NCBI RefSeq assembly: GCF_054482595.1 | Contig: NZ_CM137008.1 | Direction: 5' to 3' (one strand) | Length of the DNA: 64,000 nucleotides | Shown here: positions 2,450 to 53,149 of the stretch, one piece after another | How positions within the stretch are numbered: position 1 is the stretch's first letter | Layout of the letters: every line of letters starts with the position of its first letter | The notes under the pieces: model-generated | Database searches by the model: none | What the model saw: the letters and a program-made list of their open reading frames with translations, nothing else | What the model was told of the DNA's origin: nothing | Made by a program: the position numbers and the translations under genes

Positions 2450-6259
<3,810 letters not shown>

Positions 6260-42525: not shown

Positions 42526-43572
42526 TCAGAAGCGGGTATCTACCGCAGAGGCGAGTTTTTCGACCAGGCGTTCGGTATCTTCCCAGCCCAGACACGGGTC
42601 GGTAATGGATTGACCGTAAGTGAGCGGCTGACCGCCGACGATTTTTTGCGTTCCTTCGCGCAGGAAACTTTCCGCCATAATTCCAGCAATCGCCGTAGAG
42701 CCATTGCGGATTTGCTGACAAATATCCTCACAAACTTCTAACTGGCGACGGTGCTGCTTCTGGCAGTTACCGTGGCTGAAATCCACCACCAGATGTTCAG
42801 GTAAATCAAACTCGTGCAGCGTATCGCAGGCTGCGGCGATATCATCGGCATGATAATTCGGTTTTTTGCCGCCACGCATAATAATGTGGCCATACGGGTT
42901 GCCGCTGGTCTGATAGATGGTCATCTGACCATTTTTGTCTGGCGAGAGGAACATATGGCTGGCGCGGGCTGCGCGGATAGCATCCACAGCAATCCGCGTA
43001 TTGCCATCGGTACCATTTTTAAAACCTACCGGACAGGAGAGTGCCGAAGCCATTTCACGGTGGATCTGACTTTCGGTAGTACGTGCGCCAATCGCGCCCC
43101 AACTGATTAAATCAGCAATAAACTGACCGGTCACCATATCGAGGAACTCAGTCGCGGTTGGGACGCCCAGCTCATTTACCTGTAAAAGTAATTTGCGCGC
43201 CAGCTCCAGACCGTGATTTACCCGATAGCTGCCGTTTAAATCTGGATCGGAGATTAGTCCTTTCCAGCCGACAACAGTTCGTGGTTTTTCAAAATAGGTG
43301 CGCATTACGATTTCCAGCCGTGACTGGTACTGGTTGCGCAGCGACTGCAGACGGGTGGCGTACTCCATTGCAGCGGTGAGATCGTGGATCGAGCAGGGGC
43401 CAATAATGACCAACAGTCGCTTATCTTCACCATTGAGTATTTTTTCAATTCTGCGGCGGGAGTCGGTGACATGGGTGGCGACGCCAGGCGTTACGGGATA
43501 CCGTAGCGCGAGTTCGGCGGGCGTTACCAGGCTCTCAATACGCGCAGTACGGAGTTCGTCAGTTCTGTTCAT
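42526..43572 (-). CDS. aroH: DAHP synthase, Trp-sensitive
   Basis: ORF 42526..43695; start at MNRTDELRTARIESLV gives the 348-aa AroH. Confidence 0.93.
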   Translation of the reverse strand: MNRTDELRTARIESLVTPAELALRYPVTPGVATHVTDSRRRIEKILNGEDKRLLVIIGPCSIHDLTAAMEYATRLQSLRNQYQSRLEIVMRTYFEKPRTVVGWKGLISDPDLNGSYRVNHGLELARKLLLQVNELGVPTATEFLDMVTGQFIADLISWGAIGARTTESQIHREMASALSCPVGFKNGTDGNTRIAVDAIRAARASHMFLSPDKNGQMTIYQTSGNPYGHIIMRGGKKPNYHADDIAAACDTLHEFDLPEHLVVDFSHGNCQKQHRRQLEVCEDICQQIRNGSTAIAGIMAESFLREGTQKIVGGQPLTYGQSITDPCLGWEDTERLVEKLASAVDTRF

Positions 43573-43717
43573 TACAAGTCTCAGAAATTTGTTGCTTCTA
43601 CGGCAGGACTGCCGGGAAGTGATGCGCATCACGATAAACCAATCGCTGCTGATTTCAAGTGCGAGGTGTGTCACACCTCGCCGGGTGGTTAGCATGATAA
43701 CAAAAAAATAAGCTAAT

Positions 43718-43735
43718 GCACTAGTTCTTTAGTAC
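43718..43735 (-). promoter_or_regulatory. candidate TrpR operator in aroH promoter
   Basis: reverse strand reads gtactaaagaactagtgc, close to the aroH TrpR operator palindrome; overlaps ppsR stop codon. Confidence 0.45.
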
Positions 43736-44562
43736 ATTCGGCGACTAAGGCCCATGATATCGAGGATCTTGGTGGCAATCTCTTCTACCGAATAATTGGT
43801 ACTGTTAATCCACGGGATCTGATTTTTACGGTACAAGGCTTCCACTTCCGCGACTTCCATCCTGCACTGACGAAGCGAGGCATAGCGACTGTTCTCCCGA
43901 CGTTCCTCGCGAATCGCCGCCAGACGTTCCGGGTCGATAGTCAGGCCGAACAATTTATGCTGAAGCGGTTTGAGCGACGCGGGTAGCACCAGATTATCCA
44001 TATCGTCGGCAATAAAGGGGTAGTTTGCCGCGCGGATACCAAATTGCATTGCCAGATACAGACTGGTGGGGGTTTTACCACAGCGAGAAACACCGAGCAG
44101 GATCACCTGAGCCTGATCCAGATTGCGCAACGAAATGCCGTCATCGTGGGCGAGGGTGTAATCAATCGCCGCAATGCGCGCATCATATTTATTGAGATTA
44201 TTAGGGTTAAGGCCATGGGTACGATGAGCAATCGGCGTTGGATCCAGTTTCATCTCTTGTTGTAGCGGGGCAACCAGCGCCTGAACGATATCCTGGCAAA
44301 AACCTTCACTTTGCAAGATGATGGCGCGAATCTCCGGCAACACGATGGAGTAGAAGACCAGCGGGCGCACGCCTGTCTGGTGATAAATTGCGTCAATCTG
44401 ATCCTTCACTGCCCGTGCACGGCTCTCATTTTCGACAAACGGCAGCGTGATGCTGCTGATAGTGACGGGAAATTGTGACATTACTGCGTGTCCTAATACC
44501 TCCGCAGTTATTGCCGTACCATCAGAAATATAAAAAACGTGGCGATCAACAGCATTATCCAT
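43729..44562 (-). CDS. ppsR: PEP synthetase regulatory protein (bifunctional kinase/phosphotransferase)
   Basis: 277-aa ORF with P-loop GVSRCGKT. Confidence 0.93.
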
Positions 44563-47280: not shown

Positions 47281-47305
47281 ACCCGGCGGCGTTTTGTCGC
47301 CGGGT
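47281..47305 (+). terminator. hairpin downstream of ppsA
   Basis: acccggcggcgttttgtcgccgggt inverted repeat just after ppsA stop. Confidence 0.6.
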
Positions 47306-47756
47306 CCATTTCTATATCCCCACCTTTTAACAACCTACTTCAGGCAAACGCGCTCGTGCAATATAAAAAGCTTCCGAGCATCATCTGAATAATTGGCTGG
47401 TGTTCTTTCTGATTTTAATTCGTTTGAGATCTTCTCCACAGAATAATTCTCGATACCATTTTTTCTCAAAGTCGAATGTGACCACTCGTCAATTTCCTTA
47501 AGCATATGCGTAATTTTTTCGTCCAGAGTTCGTTGGATTGCACGAAGTCACTGGCGAGTCCCGTTTTTATACTGTCTTCAACCACAGCATAAAAAGAGAT
47601 ATGGCTATGAAAAATTACCGCACCGTTATTCAGACATAAGCGCAGATTATGTAATTCAGAGAATTTATTCGAACTAAAGCCGATTTTCTGATTTGTCTGG
47701 CTGTACAGAAAACAGGATAAATTCCCTCCACGAGCGGAGGGAAACAGCTACAGGGA

Positions 47757-49163
47757 TTGCATATGAGTTGCTATTTGAAAGTCCTGATTTGTGCGATTGT
47801 CGCACTCGCTATATGGTTTTCCCCCGTCCCCGACGGGTTAACACCCTTAACCTGGCACATTCTGGCAATATTCATCACCACTGTGGTGGCGTTTATTCTG
47901 CAACCGTTGCCGGTAGGCGCTATCGCGTTAATAGCCATCAGTTTTATTATGCTTACCGGCATGATGAAAACCAGCGAAGCCTTAAAAGGTTTCAGCAGCA
48001 CCACGGTATGGCTTATTGTCGCCGCATTCCTGTACGCGAAAGGATTCATCAAAACGGGGTTAGGACGACGTATCGCCTATTTACTGATTCGCGGATTTGG
48101 CGGCAGCTCGTTGCGTCTGGGTTATACCTTAGCGCTAAGTGATATGATTATCGCGCCCGCAACGCCATCAAACACAGCGCGAGCAGGGGGGATTTTGTTC
48201 CCGATTGTTCGCAGTGTCTCTAACAGCTTTGGATCTGAACCGGATCAAGGGCCGCGTAAAATCGGCGCTTATCTGATGCAGACGGTGTTCCATTCCAACT
48301 GTCTCTCATCCTCGATGTTTATGACGGCCAGCGCGCCAAATGCGCTAATTGTATCTCTGGCGGCCAGCACCTTATTTGTTGATATCTCATGGGGGATGTG
48401 GACGCTAAGTGCACTGGTACCGGGCATTATCGCTTTTATCACTATGCCGTTGGTCATTTACAAACTTTACCCGCCAGAGATCAAAAAGACGCCAGAAGCC
48501 AAAGCGTTGGCACAGGAAGAACTTATCAAAATGGGGCCGGTAACCCGTGATGAGCGCGTGACGATTGGCATTTTCCTGCTTTCATTATTGGCCTGGAGTA
48601 CATCGAAATGGACTGGCCTGGATGCGACGGCTGTCGCGCTTTCCGGCGTCTGTTTAATGTTGATGACCCGGATTATCACCTGGCAGGATGTGCAGTCAGA
48701 GAAGGGGGCCTGGGACATTCTGGTCTGGCTGGGAGTCATGATCTGTATGGCAGATAAGCTCAATCAGCTTGGCCTGTTCAAATGGTTTGCCGTCACAACC
48801 TCGGCGCTGTTCACCGGCATTCCCTGGGAAATAACACTGACGGTTTTGCTGATAGTTTACTGCTATTCCCACTATTTCTTTGCCGGAAGTACGCCGCATG
48901 TAGTGGCGATGTATGCCGCTTTTGGCAGCGTCTCGGTTGCTGCAGGCGCACCGCCGATGATGGCAGCTCTGTCACTGGCGTTCGTCACTAACCTGATGAG
49001 CGGCATTTCGCATTATGGCAACGGACCCGCAGTGATCTATTACGGCGCAGGCTATGTCTCGCAACGAGAATGGTGGCGGCTGGGCTTTATCGTCATGTTG
49101 TTGAACATTGTCATCTGGTTCGGACTGGGGGCGGTGTGGTGGAAAATTCTTGGCCTGTGGTAA
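47757..49163 (+). CDS. DASS-family (divalent anion:Na+ symporter / CitT-TtdT-like) transporter
   Basis: 468-aa polytopic ORF with SNTA motifs (PATPSNTARAG); true start may be ATG 47763 (spacing to aggg); family call from motif recall only. Confidence 0.7.
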   Translation: MHMSCYLKVLICAIVALAIWFSPVPDGLTPLTWHILAIFITTVVAFILQPLPVGAIALIAISFIMLTGMMKTSEALKGFSSTTVWLIVAAFLYAKGFIKTGLGRRIAYLLIRGFGGSSLRLGYTLALSDMIIAPATPSNTARAGGILFPIVRSVSNSFGSEPDQGPRKIGAYLMQTVFHSNCLSSSMFMTASAPNALIVSLAASTLFVDISWGMWTLSALVPGIIAFITMPLVIYKLYPPEIKKTPEAKALAQEELIKMGPVTRDERVTIGIFLLSLLAWSTSKWTGLDATAVALSGVCLMLMTRIITWQDVQSEKGAWDILVWLGVMICMADKLNQLGLFKWFAVTTSALFTGIPWEITLTVLLIVYCYSHYFFAGSTPHVVAMYAAFGSVSVAAGAPPMMAALSLAFVTNLMSGISHYGNGPAVIYYGAGYVSQREWWRLGFIVMLLNIVIWFGLGAVWWKILGLW

Positions 49164-49198
49164 GTGGTCTGCGGCAAACATCAATCAAGGAATAGTGT

Positions 49199-50158
49199 AT
49201 GAACTTAAAAGATATTCAGGTGGCGATCGTCGGCAAATTAAGCGACCGCTTAATGGCTAAAGTTGAATCTACCTTCACCGCATATCGCCTGTGGGAACTG
49301 ACCGACGCAGACGCTTTTTACACGCAGATCGCGCCGGATATTCAGGCGCTGGTGACCAGTGGTAATCCGGTAATGGGAGCTTCTCGGGCGCTCATTGAAA
49401 AATTTCCGAATCTGAAGATTATTGCCAGCAACGGTGTGGGCTATGACCCTATTGATATCGTGGCAGCAAGGGAGCATGGCGTTATCGTCACCAACACCCC
49501 TGGCGTGCTTAATGATTGTGTTGCAGACATTGGCATGGCGTTGTTACTCAATGTTGCCCGACGTATTAACATTGCCGATCGTTATGTTCGTGACGGCCGT
49601 TGGCCAAACGAAGGGCGTTTCCCGATGGCGACGAAAGTGAGTGGTAAGCGTTGCGGAATTGTTGGTCTGGGGAACATTGGTAACGCTGTAGCCCGCCGTG
49701 CAGCAGCATTTGAAATGGAAATTCACTATTTCGACCCAAAACCGCATAACAAACCTGGATGGACGGCGCATGATTCGCTGGTTTCTCTGGCGCAAGCGGT
49801 GGATTTCCTCGTTCTGACGCTGCCAGGCGGGGCAAGTACACGCGGCGTTATTGACAAAACTGTGCTGCAGGCTCTGGGGGGGACCGGGCATTTGATCAGT
49901 ATTTCCCGGGGTTCAGTGGTGAACGAAACTGATCTGATTGATGCTCTGCAAAATAACATAATTGCTGGTGCGGCACTGGACGTTTATGCCAACGAACCAC
50001 ATGTGCCAGAACAATTAATGTCGCTGGATAACGTTGTCCTTACGCCACATATCGCCAGTGGTACGAGCGAAACGTTTAATGCGATGGCGGATTTGGTTTT
50101 TGATAACTTACAGGCTTTCTTTAGCGGACAGCCAGTTATTACCCCTGTTACTCAATAA
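49199..50158 (+). CDS. D-isomer-specific 2-hydroxyacid dehydrogenase family protein
   Basis: 319-aa ORF with NAD-binding GIVGLGNIG and C-terminal catalytic TPHIAS region; RBS aagga upstream. Confidence 0.75.
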   Translation: MNLKDIQVAIVGKLSDRLMAKVESTFTAYRLWELTDADAFYTQIAPDIQALVTSGNPVMGASRALIEKFPNLKIIASNGVGYDPIDIVAAREHGVIVTNTPGVLNDCVADIGMALLLNVARRINIADRYVRDGRWPNEGRFPMATKVSGKRCGIVGLGNIGNAVARRAAAFEMEIHYFDPKPHNKPGWTAHDSLVSLAQAVDFLVLTLPGGASTRGVIDKTVLQALGGTGHLISISRGSVVNETDLIDALQNNIIAGAALDVYANEPHVPEQLMSLDNVVLTPHIASGTSETFNAMADLVFDNLQAFFSGQPVITPVTQ

Positions 50159-50168
50159 GGCGGAAAAT

Positions 50169-50648
50169 ATGATTTATGGTGATATCACTTATCTTAGTGA
50201 ACAACAAAAACGAACATTTCATCCTGTCATCGCTCGTGTCATTGAGTATCTTTCACAACATGATCTGAATAGTGTTCCTGTAGGGGAGAAGGTTTTTATT
50301 CAGGATGACTCAATTTTTTATACCGTGGTTGAACCGATGACTAAACCACTACATGAATGCCGACCAGAAGTTCATCGTAAATATCTTGATGTCCATTTCT
50401 TAATTGCCGGAGAAGAGCGGGTTTGTGTGGATTTTGATGATGGAGAAAACTCGGTTGTAGAAAGCCACCTGGGCGACCGTGACGTTATTTTTTATGCTGA
50501 TGAACGTATTAATGATCGGATAATCACGTTGACACCAGGACAGTTTGTGGTGGTCTTCCCGGAAGAGGTACATCGGGCATGTTATAAAGTCGATAACGTG
50601 GAGAAAATCAAAAAAACAGTCGTGAAAATCGACATGAGTCTATTATAG
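50169..50648 (+). CDS. YhcH/YjgK/YiaL (DUF386, NanQ-like) cupin-fold protein
   Basis: ORF 50034..50648; start placed at ATG 50169 just after the dehydrogenase stop; resembles YhcH by recall (LIAGEER, PGQFVVVFPEEVH, IKKTVVKI). Confidence 0.6.
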   Translation: MIYGDITYLSEQQKRTFHPVIARVIEYLSQHDLNSVPVGEKVFIQDDSIFYTVVEPMTKPLHECRPEVHRKYLDVHFLIAGEERVCVDFDDGENSVVESHLGDRDVIFYADERINDRIITLTPGQFVVVFPEEVHRACYKVDNVEKIKKTVVKIDMSLL

Positions 50649-50660
50649 GTGGAGCTGGTT

Positions 50661-51404
50661 ATGACAAAAATTGCCCTGGTGACAGGGGGAAGTAAAGGTA
50701 TCGGCTACGCGGCAGCAAGGGCGCTCTATGACATTGGATATACTGTTATTGTTGCCGCGCGTAACGAAGAAACCTTACAGCAATGTGCACAAGAATTAGC
50801 CAAGGAACGCTTTATTCCTCTGGTTGCTGATGTAACGGATGAGTCCGCTGTCGTTGCACTATTTGCCGAGATTAAGGCTCGTTTTGGTCGACTGGATCTC
50901 TTGTTCAATAATGCGGGCAATAATAGTCCGGCAAAAAGTATTGAAGAGGTTGAGTTTACTGAGTGGATACGCGTATTTAACGCCAATATTCACTCGACAT
51001 TTTTGTGTTCGAAAGAGGCGATTAAAATTATGAAAGCGCAGCAGCCAATGGGAGGACGTATTATTAACAATGCGTCGATTTCCGCACTGACGCCGCGCCT
51101 CTATACTGCGCCATACACGGCGTCGAAACATGCTGTTACCGGGTTGACCAAGGCCATTTCCCTGGATTGTCGCAAATTTAATATCGCTTGCGGGCAAATT
51201 AATATCGGCAATGCGGAAACGACATTATCGAATCGGATGCGTAAGGGCGTTTATCAGGCAGATGGCGCTATTAAAGCGGAAGATATGATGAATGTTGCTG
51301 ATGTTGCAGCAGCCATTCAGATGATGGCCCAATTGCCAGTAACCACGAATGTGCTGGAAATAACGATTATGGCAAATAATATGCCATATGTCGGACGTGG
51401 TTAA
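50661..51404 (+). CDS. short-chain dehydrogenase/reductase (SDR)
   Basis: ORF 50649..51404; ATG 50661 preceded by aggtggag; TGGSKGIG cofactor motif, NNAG, catalytic Y-x3-K (YTASK). Confidence 0.8.
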   Translation: MTKIALVTGGSKGIGYAAARALYDIGYTVIVAARNEETLQQCAQELAKERFIPLVADVTDESAVVALFAEIKARFGRLDLLFNNAGNNSPAKSIEEVEFTEWIRVFNANIHSTFLCSKEAIKIMKAQQPMGGRIINNASISALTPRLYTAPYTASKHAVTGLTKAISLDCRKFNIACGQINIGNAETTLSNRMRKGVYQADGAIKAEDMMNVADVAAAIQMMAQLPVTTNVLEITIMANNMPYVGRG

Positions 51405-51417
51405 TCGGGATTGAATA

Positions 51418-51442
51418 AAGCACCTTGCGTATAAGGTGCTTT
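51418..51442. terminator. bidirectional hairpin between SDR gene and fadK
   Basis: aaagcaccttgcgtataaggtgcttt inverted repeat flanked by A/T runs between convergent genes. Confidence 0.7.
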
Positions 51443-51454
51443 ATTATTTATGAC

Positions 51455-53149
51455 TTATGCCTCAACGCATGATTGTTCCAGCCGTTGAACAATATCTTTC
51501 CGTAACAAAAACTTTTGTATTTTACCTGAGGCAGTACGCGGTAGTTTTTCGATTACCACGATATGTTCAGGATATTTATATTTTGCGACCCGTTTACGGC
51601 TAAAAAAAGCCACCACCTCTTCCAGCGATAATGAATGATGCGGTGCTTTCAGCACGACATAAGCGCATGAACGTTCACCTAAGCGTTCATCGGGCATTGC
51701 AACCACACAAGCATCGTGAATTTTAGGATGCTGTAATAAAATATCTTCCACTTCACGGCTGCTAATATTTTCGCCGCCGCGGACAATAATATCTTTCTTG
51801 CGCCCGGTTATTTTTATATAGCCAGCCTCATCCATGCGGCAGAGATCGCCGCTGTAATACCAGCCTTCTTCATCCATGGCACGGGCGGTTAATTCAGGTT
51901 CATCAAAATACCCCATAAACACATTGGGGCCACGCGAGGCTTCTTCACCTTCGCAACCTGGCGGTAAGGTCTTGCGTGCGTCATCGACCACTTTAATCTC
52001 TACACCTGCGGCAGCGTAACCATCGGTGTGCATAAAGCGCGACAAAGGATCATCGAGATTCACCACCGCATGCGGCGAACTTTCTGTGGAACCATAAACA
52101 CTTAATAATTTAATGCCGCGCTGCTGGCATTCACGCGCCACTTTTTTGGGGATTGTGGTACCGCCGCAAAGAAAGAAGCGCAGCGCTGAAAGGTCTGCGG
52201 GTTGTTTCTCTAGTAAATTCAAAAGATCATAGACAAACGGCGTTGCGCCGAGCATACAGGTGCAACGCTGCTGCTCAAGCAGCGCGAGACACGCATCAGG
52301 AGTGAAAATATCTAACAACACGCTGCGAGCGCCAATTAAGAATGGTGCCGTTACGCCATGCAGAAAGCCCGTTGCGTGGCCGAGTGGCGCAGGCATCATA
52401 AAGACATCCTGCCAGGTCAGATTCAGCCGCGCGCAATAAGCCCGCTCACTGGCGAGAATATTGTTATGCGTTAGCATCACGCCCTTTGGCAGACCCTCGG
52501 TTCCGGAGGTAAACAGCACCGCAGCTAATTCATCGCCGTGGGTCGTTATCGCCGTGGTCAGTGGGGTATTGTCGGCGATAATCTGACTTAATGAGAGGGA
52601 AGAGGTGGCGGGAGCCAGTTTGTCCACGCCGACAATTTGTTGTAGTTGTGGAAGCTGATTTTGCAGCGGCAGGATTAAATCTACCGGACGCGTTTGTTTA
52701 AACAACGTCGGTGCAAAGAACATTTTTGCCTGACACTTATTGAGCACCCACACCAGTTCTGCTTCCCGCCAGGAAGGCAACAGCGGCACGGAAACCGCAC
52801 CGATTTTCAGGCAGGCAAGATAGATAACGGTAAATTCACACCAGCCTGGCAGTTGAAATGCGATGCGATCGCCTGATTCAATACCCTTCGCTAACATCCA
52901 GTTTGCCAGACAGCTCGCGGCGTGATCGAGCGCGCTATAGGTGTACGATGCTCCATGATTATCGACCACGGCAATTTTGTCTGGCATCGCACGAGCGGTC
53001 TGCTGCCAGTAATCGGCCAGCGAAGCATCGCCCCATAGCCCTTGCTGACGATACGCCGCACGACGTTGTTCGTTAAACGTTAATGTCACTTTCATTTTGG
53101 ACTCTCGAAACAGAACATCAGGCCCGAGATGCGGGCCTGTGGGATGCAT
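51455..53149 (-). CDS. fadK: short-chain acyl-CoA synthetase
   Basis: 564-aa ORF, AMP-binding family; true start may be the internal MKVTLTF. Confidence 0.9.
   Translation of the reverse strand: MHPTGPHLGPDVLFRESKMKVTLTFNEQRRAAYRQQGLWGDASLADYWQQTARAMPDKIAVVDNHGASYTYSALDHAASCLANWMLAKGIESGDRIAFQLPGWCEFTVIYLACLKIGAVSVPLLPSWREAELVWVLNKCQAKMFFAPTLFKQTRPVDLILPLQNQLPQLQQIVGVDKLAPATSSLSLSQIIADNTPLTTAITTHGDELAAVLFTSGTEGLPKGVMLTHNNILASERAYCARLNLTWQDVFMMPAPLGHATGFLHGVTAPFLIGARSVLLDIFTPDACLALLEQQRCTCMLGATPFVYDLLNLLEKQPADLSALRFFLCGGTTIPKKVARECQQRGIKLLSVYGSTESSPHAVVNLDDPLSRFMHTDGYAAAGVEIKVVDDARKTLPPGCEGEEASRGPNVFMGYFDEPELTARAMDEEGWYYSGDLCRMDEAGYIKITGRKKDIIVRGGENISSREVEDILLQHPKIHDACVVAMPDERLGERSCAYVVLKAPHHSLSLEEVVAFFSRKRVAKYKYPEHIVVIEKLPRTASGKIQKFLLRKDIVQRLEQSCVEA

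Follow-up and report, generated by a model that had tools for sequence, protein, structure and literature searches.

In Escherichia coli K-12 the TrpR operators of trp and trpR are situated on the -10 element or the transcription start, and that of aroH, encoding the Trp-sensitive DAHP synthase, is situated on the -35 region. The aroH operator has reportedly been treated in work by Zurawski (1981), Kumamoto (1987), Klig (1988), and Grove and Gunsalus (1987). In the literature aroH is named as a TrpR target with footprinting studies cited, and TrpR operators are described by the rule GNACT-N8-AGTNC (PMC9413887), which the site analysed here fits. The identity of the aroH operator is already known, and the present analysis adds nothing on TrpR; it concerns the way in which this operator shares its DNA with the end of ppsR in the 64-kb window, meaning the whole stretch of DNA that was analysed, and in related genomes.

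Sequence and location of the aroH operator

Regarding gene layout, ppsR (ydiA; CDS 43729..44562, minus strand, from the ORF and the MG1655 annotation) lies directly upstream of aroH (CDS 42526..43572, minus strand, with its ATG at 43572 and an annotated length of 348 aa), the two genes being arranged in tandem, on the window's minus strand and on the plus strand in MG1655. The original prediction had placed ppsR convergently to aroH, which is wrong; its spacer of 156 bp between the two genes agrees with the ORFs and with the MG1655 annotation. The ORF list has a longer aroH ORF of 389 aa that begins at the ATG at 43695 and covers both aroH promoters (extension 43573-43695, minus strand); it was rejected as an artefact, because aroH is annotated from the ATG at 43572.

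The 3' end of ppsR reads ...CGC CGA ATG TAC TAA, with the stop TAA at 43731..43729 inside the P1 operator of aroH, the 18-bp imperfect palindrome GTACTAAAGAACTAGTGC (43718..43735, minus strand), assigned on sequence, matrix score and conservation. The first operator base is the third base, G, of the last Met codon of ppsR, and the left half-site GTACTA(A) is made up of the same DNA as this G, the TAC codon for Tyr and the stop of ppsR. The sequence and the ORF bear out the predicted palindrome at 43735..43718 and its place over the stop codon; it is present as had been described but its symmetry is incomplete, five of the nine symmetric pairs being complementary in the window and 6/9 in K-12. 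The half-sites GTACT and GCACT, the latter on the opposite strand, are 8 bp apart, and the site as a whole, GTACT-AAAGAACT-AGTGC, is an inverted pair of GNACT half-sites at 8-bp spacing. A CTAG core is present in the right half and is replaced by CTAA in the left half; such a core does not define the family, because the K-12 trpR and mtr operators are also without CTAG. Orthology with the footprinted K-12 aroH operator is evident from the identity of 17 of 18 bases and from the same place between ppsR and aroH, where MG1655 has GTACTAGAGAACTAGTGC, which we take to be the published aroH operator.

A symmetric TrpR matrix was derived from the trp, trpR, mtr and aroL operators taken from NC_000913.3, with aroH excluded. 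This four-operator matrix ranks the site first among all 18-mers of the 64 kb, at 12.96 bits (runner-up 9.9 bits; background mean -16.3, sd 6.4), a score lower than those that the known TrpR sites reach in leave-one-out scoring (14.8-19.6 bits). The rank and the near-identity with MG1655 uphold the original naming of the palindrome as the TrpR operator of aroH. A search for GTACTARNNNNCTAGTNC with at most one mismatch gave one match in the window vs 0.04 expected. That the palindrome is a chance match without function has a negligible probability: nothing but its imperfect symmetry speaks for this reading, the expected number of matches and the top matrix score in the window speak against it, and its conservation in 76 of 80 species already refutes it. 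The site is very probably the operator at which TrpR, as a dimer carrying tryptophan, represses P1, the upstream one of two aroH promoters, and binding and repression at the TAA allele found in the window would be expected by analogy with the K-12 literature.

Promoters and transcript routes of aroH

Regarding the promoter that the operator overlaps, P1 has an extended -10 element, TGtTATCAT (43694..43702, minus strand), with a conserved hexamer TATCAT (43699..43694) preceded by TG, and its start at 43686 (minus strand) lies 8 nt past the last base of the hexamer. The P1 -35 position, at about 43723..43717, falls within the right operator half. Relative to the P1 start the operator spans about -49 to -32, centred at -40.5, and the ppsR stop spans -45 to -43, with the operator overlapping core elements of the promoter of this aromatic pathway gene. 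Beyond -45, the upstream DNA of P1 belongs to the coding sequence of ppsR, as anticipated in the original prediction, which had the aroH promoter extend into the ppsR end. The mapped P1 start agrees with the classical placing of the aroH operator on the -35 region. The second promoter, P2 (TTGAAA-16-TATCGT, 43631..43658, minus strand), is conserved and does not overlap the operator; its start at 43623 (minus strand) is followed by a leader of 51 nt to the ATG and lies 63 bp downstream of the P1 start; relative to the P2 start the operator would be about 100 bp upstream.

Both starts are recorded by SMRT-Cappable-seq, in which aroH starts are given at 1788320 and 1788383 (PMC6131387, supplementary file 4). 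The forward-strand values of this table were judged to be 0-based against the coordinates of Kim et al. (2012), so that the P1 start corresponds to MG1655 1788321 and the P2 start to MG1655 1788384. Kim et al. (2012) reported just one start for aroH, which precedes the ATG by 51 nt (window 43623, P2), and a 2025 study used a cloned aroH leader of 51 nt. Because of these two reports P1 may be minor in common growth, which may be just what is expected if P1 is repressed. The idea that the start of Kim et al. (2012) moves the promoter off the operator was rejected, since SMRT-Cappable-seq shows both starts; start mapping, which had been proposed as a check on the prediction, shows that the start of Kim et al. 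exists alongside the operator-overlapped P1 and does not replace it.

A transcript covering b1703|b1704 (ppsR-aroH) with its start at 1787414 was also found by SMRT-Cappable-seq (PMC6131387), and a terminator scan of the ppsR-aroH spacer returned no terminator-like site. In the proposed mechanism bound TrpR would sit on the P1 -35 region and exclude RNA polymerase. Because the genes are in tandem, ppsR transcription traverses the operator, and transcripts from the ppsR promoter continue through it into aroH. Control of aroH by TrpR is partial only, as the conserved P2 and ppsR read-through also supply transcripts, and three transcript routes into aroH fit the weak TrpR control of the gene.

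Further elements were observed in the spacer. The P2 promoter with its 51-nt leader (43573-43660, minus strand) is far better conserved than the P1 region among 78 species, the conserved promoter spacer being GATTGGTTTA. A palindrome, GTGATGCGCATCAC (43619-43632, minus strand), lies on the P2 start at 43623, and its arms match the CRP consensus core GTGAT-N4-ATCAC. A near-form of it is present in 72 of 78 species, about 66 of which keep both arms exactly with the central four bases varying, a pattern of conservation that resembles a protein-binding site more than an RNA stem; we know of no regulator for this palindrome. The P2 leader also contains a small hairpin at about 43601-43614, the arms of which appear compensatory (CGGCAG/CTGCCG, CCAGC/GCTGG, CGGTAA/TTACCG). 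No Rfam family matched the ppsR-aroH spacer, P2 leader included. Just past the P1 start lies a GC-rich hairpin, GCGAGGTGTGACACACCTCGC (43661-43681, minus strand; -15.6 kcal/mol, z-score -3.6), which has no U run behind it and is conserved in sequence only within Escherichia; it could be a stabiliser of the P1 transcript or a mark of ppsR 3' ends.

Conservation of the operator and its overlap with ppsR

The comparative set comprised 80 Enterobacteriaceae loci (L004-L083), one genome per species, from a scan that found 563 loci in all. In 76 of these species GTACTAR-N4-CTAG lies exactly on the ppsR stop. Across species the operator does not vary at its outer positions but does so at its central four bases, the downstream flank diverges fast, and a TAnnnT hexamer 17-18 nt after the operator is kept across genera. 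Regarding the coding function of the same DNA, the last Tyr codon of ppsR is TAC in 78/80 species, compared with 409 TAC vs 370 TAT (52% TAC) elsewhere in ppsR, and ppsR ends with TAA in 64 species and with TAG in 15, with no case of TGA. Because of the TAC bias and the lack of TGA, the operator constrains both which synonymous Tyr codon and which stop is used. Since the C-termini of PpsR outside Enterobacteriaceae vary in sequence and length, this comparison suggests that protein conservation alone would not explain the invariant ATG TAC TAR, with the caveat that the 80 species are closely related. The overlap of operator and ppsR stop is ancient. It provides a quantified case of DNA that serves as codons and as operator, with a Tyr codon fixed and TGA excluded family-wide; a literature search gave no match to the operator sequence as text and no discussion of the overlap of ppsR with the operator.

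The four exceptions to this pattern serve as natural experiments. In three of them (L035, L042 and L072) ppsR and aroH have been separated, and in each of them a complete operator is found 159-162 nt upstream of the aroH ATG. Because the complete operator stays by aroH in these loci, the element belongs to aroH. About 25 bp are inserted between the two genes in L072, the freed ppsR end in L035 now reads TAT TAG, and in the fourth exception (L038) the left half-site has decayed to GTATCAA. The insert in L042 (Kosakonia sacchari) measures about 1.46 kb (3334-4790 of that locus) and that in L035, a related MAG, about 0.2 kb (3334-3540); L042 has GTACTAA both at the ppsR end and at the operator, as if the junction had been duplicated.

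These data also bear on whether the palindrome chiefly serves as an RNA hairpin, by which the ppsR transcript is ended or stabilised, and not as a protein-binding site. The RNA is predicted to fold into a 9-bp stem (-9.8 kcal/mol, z-score -4.2), after which seven U follow; the stem is, however, AU-rich with 2 G-C pairs only, the U run begins 7 nt past it, and the T run is conserved in Escherichia and Citrobacter only. The arms are invariant and do not co-vary in the 76 species, ppsR-aroH read-through is on record from SMRT-Cappable-seq, and the element goes with aroH where the two genes are separated, which together make this reading highly improbable. In its form as a terminator hairpin it was rejected, given that no terminator was called by the scan, that the U run is displaced and that the element travels with aroH.

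For the TrpR operator of P1 favoured here, an added role would be that TrpR bound on the ppsR stop acts as a roadblock against read-through into aroH, the tandem layout then being part of the regulation. This is compatible with the co-directional genes, the lack of a terminator-like site between them and the b1703|b1704 transcript from the ppsR promoter; against it, the operator lies apart from the ppsR end in three lineages, and, as a rule, one repressor dimer hinders an elongating polymerase only weakly. Such a role is considered unlikely.

The TAA allele and comparison with known operators

The window represents a natural E. coli strain, 97-99% identical to MG1655; that it might be a recoded K-12 was considered and rejected, as the difference of 1-3% from MG1655 is found throughout. 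Over 401 bases around the site the sole difference from MG1655 is an A for G at 43729, by which the ppsR stop changes from TAG to TAA and the left CTAG motif to CTAA, the changed base being one of the 8 bp that separate the GNACT half-sites. Of 5,426 complete E. coli genomes, 15 have the 35-mer with TAA and at least 4,791 the TAG version, and the representatives of six other E. coli sequence classes all have TAG. Thirteen natural genomes are identical to the window, at the reported precision, over 16 kb and the next closest reaches 99.6%, so that the TAA allele marks one clone. As a side observation on the same strain, about 4.2 kb by ppsA (window about 47305-51490) is missing from MG1655, which has 68 bp there instead; close relatives annotate an anion permease or DASS-family symporter in this segment.

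The fifteenth TAA carrier, NZ_CP025268.1 (L084), has the same operator allele in a K-12 background. Because its differences from MG1655 over 40 kb are mainly five TAG to TAA changes, it is an engineered recoded strain, presumably of the C321-type lineage in which all TAG stops were changed to TAA. The five changes (20017, 21543, 24006, 25911 and 35306) affect the stops of ppsR, ydiE/hemP, nlpC and btuC and a position inside the arpB pseudogene. The record is labelled plain 'K-12 substr. MG1655' (Boston), a label that could mislead comparisons. Whether natural or made by recoding, a change of the ppsR stop from TAG to TAA alters a regulatory site; a literature search found no mention of C321 together with aroH.

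Regarding the effect of the TAA allele on the operator, control by TrpR is most likely kept, perhaps somewhat weakened, and any effect is probably small because both GNACT half-sites are intact. Loss of function is unlikely because the base lies in the spacer, because trpR and mtr have operators without CTAG and because most genera have TAA. It is less likely than not that the TAA allele is a partly defective operator and that aroH P1 would be measurably derepressed in the clone. Its rarity among E. coli genomes and its absence from the representatives of the six other classes could be read in this way, as could the loss of one of two CTAG motifs in a site with an already imperfect right half (CTAGTGC) and the matrix score, which drops by 3.7 bits from 16.7 bits for the K-12 TAG allele to 12.96 for that of the window. 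Across species a perfect right half, CTAGTAC, accompanies 0 of 14 TAG sites vs 53 of 62 TAA sites (Fisher p = 1e-9, ignoring kinship), and the imperfect right half of all TAG sites suggests that about one defect is tolerated. On the other side, both GNACT half-sites are intact in the TAA allele, the K-12 trpR and mtr operators are without any CTAG, the association of TAG with the right half was computed ignoring phylogeny, and TAA together with an imperfect right half is the normal state in nine species, Citrobacter koseri having exactly the combination of the window. More doubtful still is the wider claim that the TAG to TAA change, silent for ppsR, measurably weakens P1 repression both in the clone and in recoded strains; if true, it would be a regulatory side effect of stop-codon recoding that has so far gone unnoticed.

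Across L004-L083 (operator positions 7 and 17) the third base of the ppsR stop was also seen to be anti-correlated with right half-site quality. This hints at a compensation that may keep total operator strength roughly constant, with statistics that ignore kinship.

Compared with known systems, the operator of the window has in common with that of K-12 aroH the locus, the flanking genes, the position relative to aroH and 17/18 bases, and differs from it by the A for G at 43729 and hence by a ppsR stop of TAA vs TAG. Recoding of the ppsR stop in NZ_CP025268.1 gave exactly the same operator allele, there engineered in K-12, whereas the window is natural and 1-3% from K-12. The aroH operators of other Enterobacteriaceae (L004-L083) resemble it in having GTACTAR-N4-CTAGTNC on the ppsR stop with the -10 element 17-18 nt downstream; other genera mostly combine TAA with a perfect CTAGTAC, whereas the window combines TAA with CTAGTGC, which is the state of a species only in Citrobacter koseri (L017). 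The K-12 trp, trpR, mtr and aroL operators are likewise 18 bp long, have inverted half-sites of the GNACT type at 8-bp spacing and are located at promoters of genes of the tryptophan or aromatic amino acid pathway, but aroH alone has an operator that shares bases with the stop of the gene upstream.
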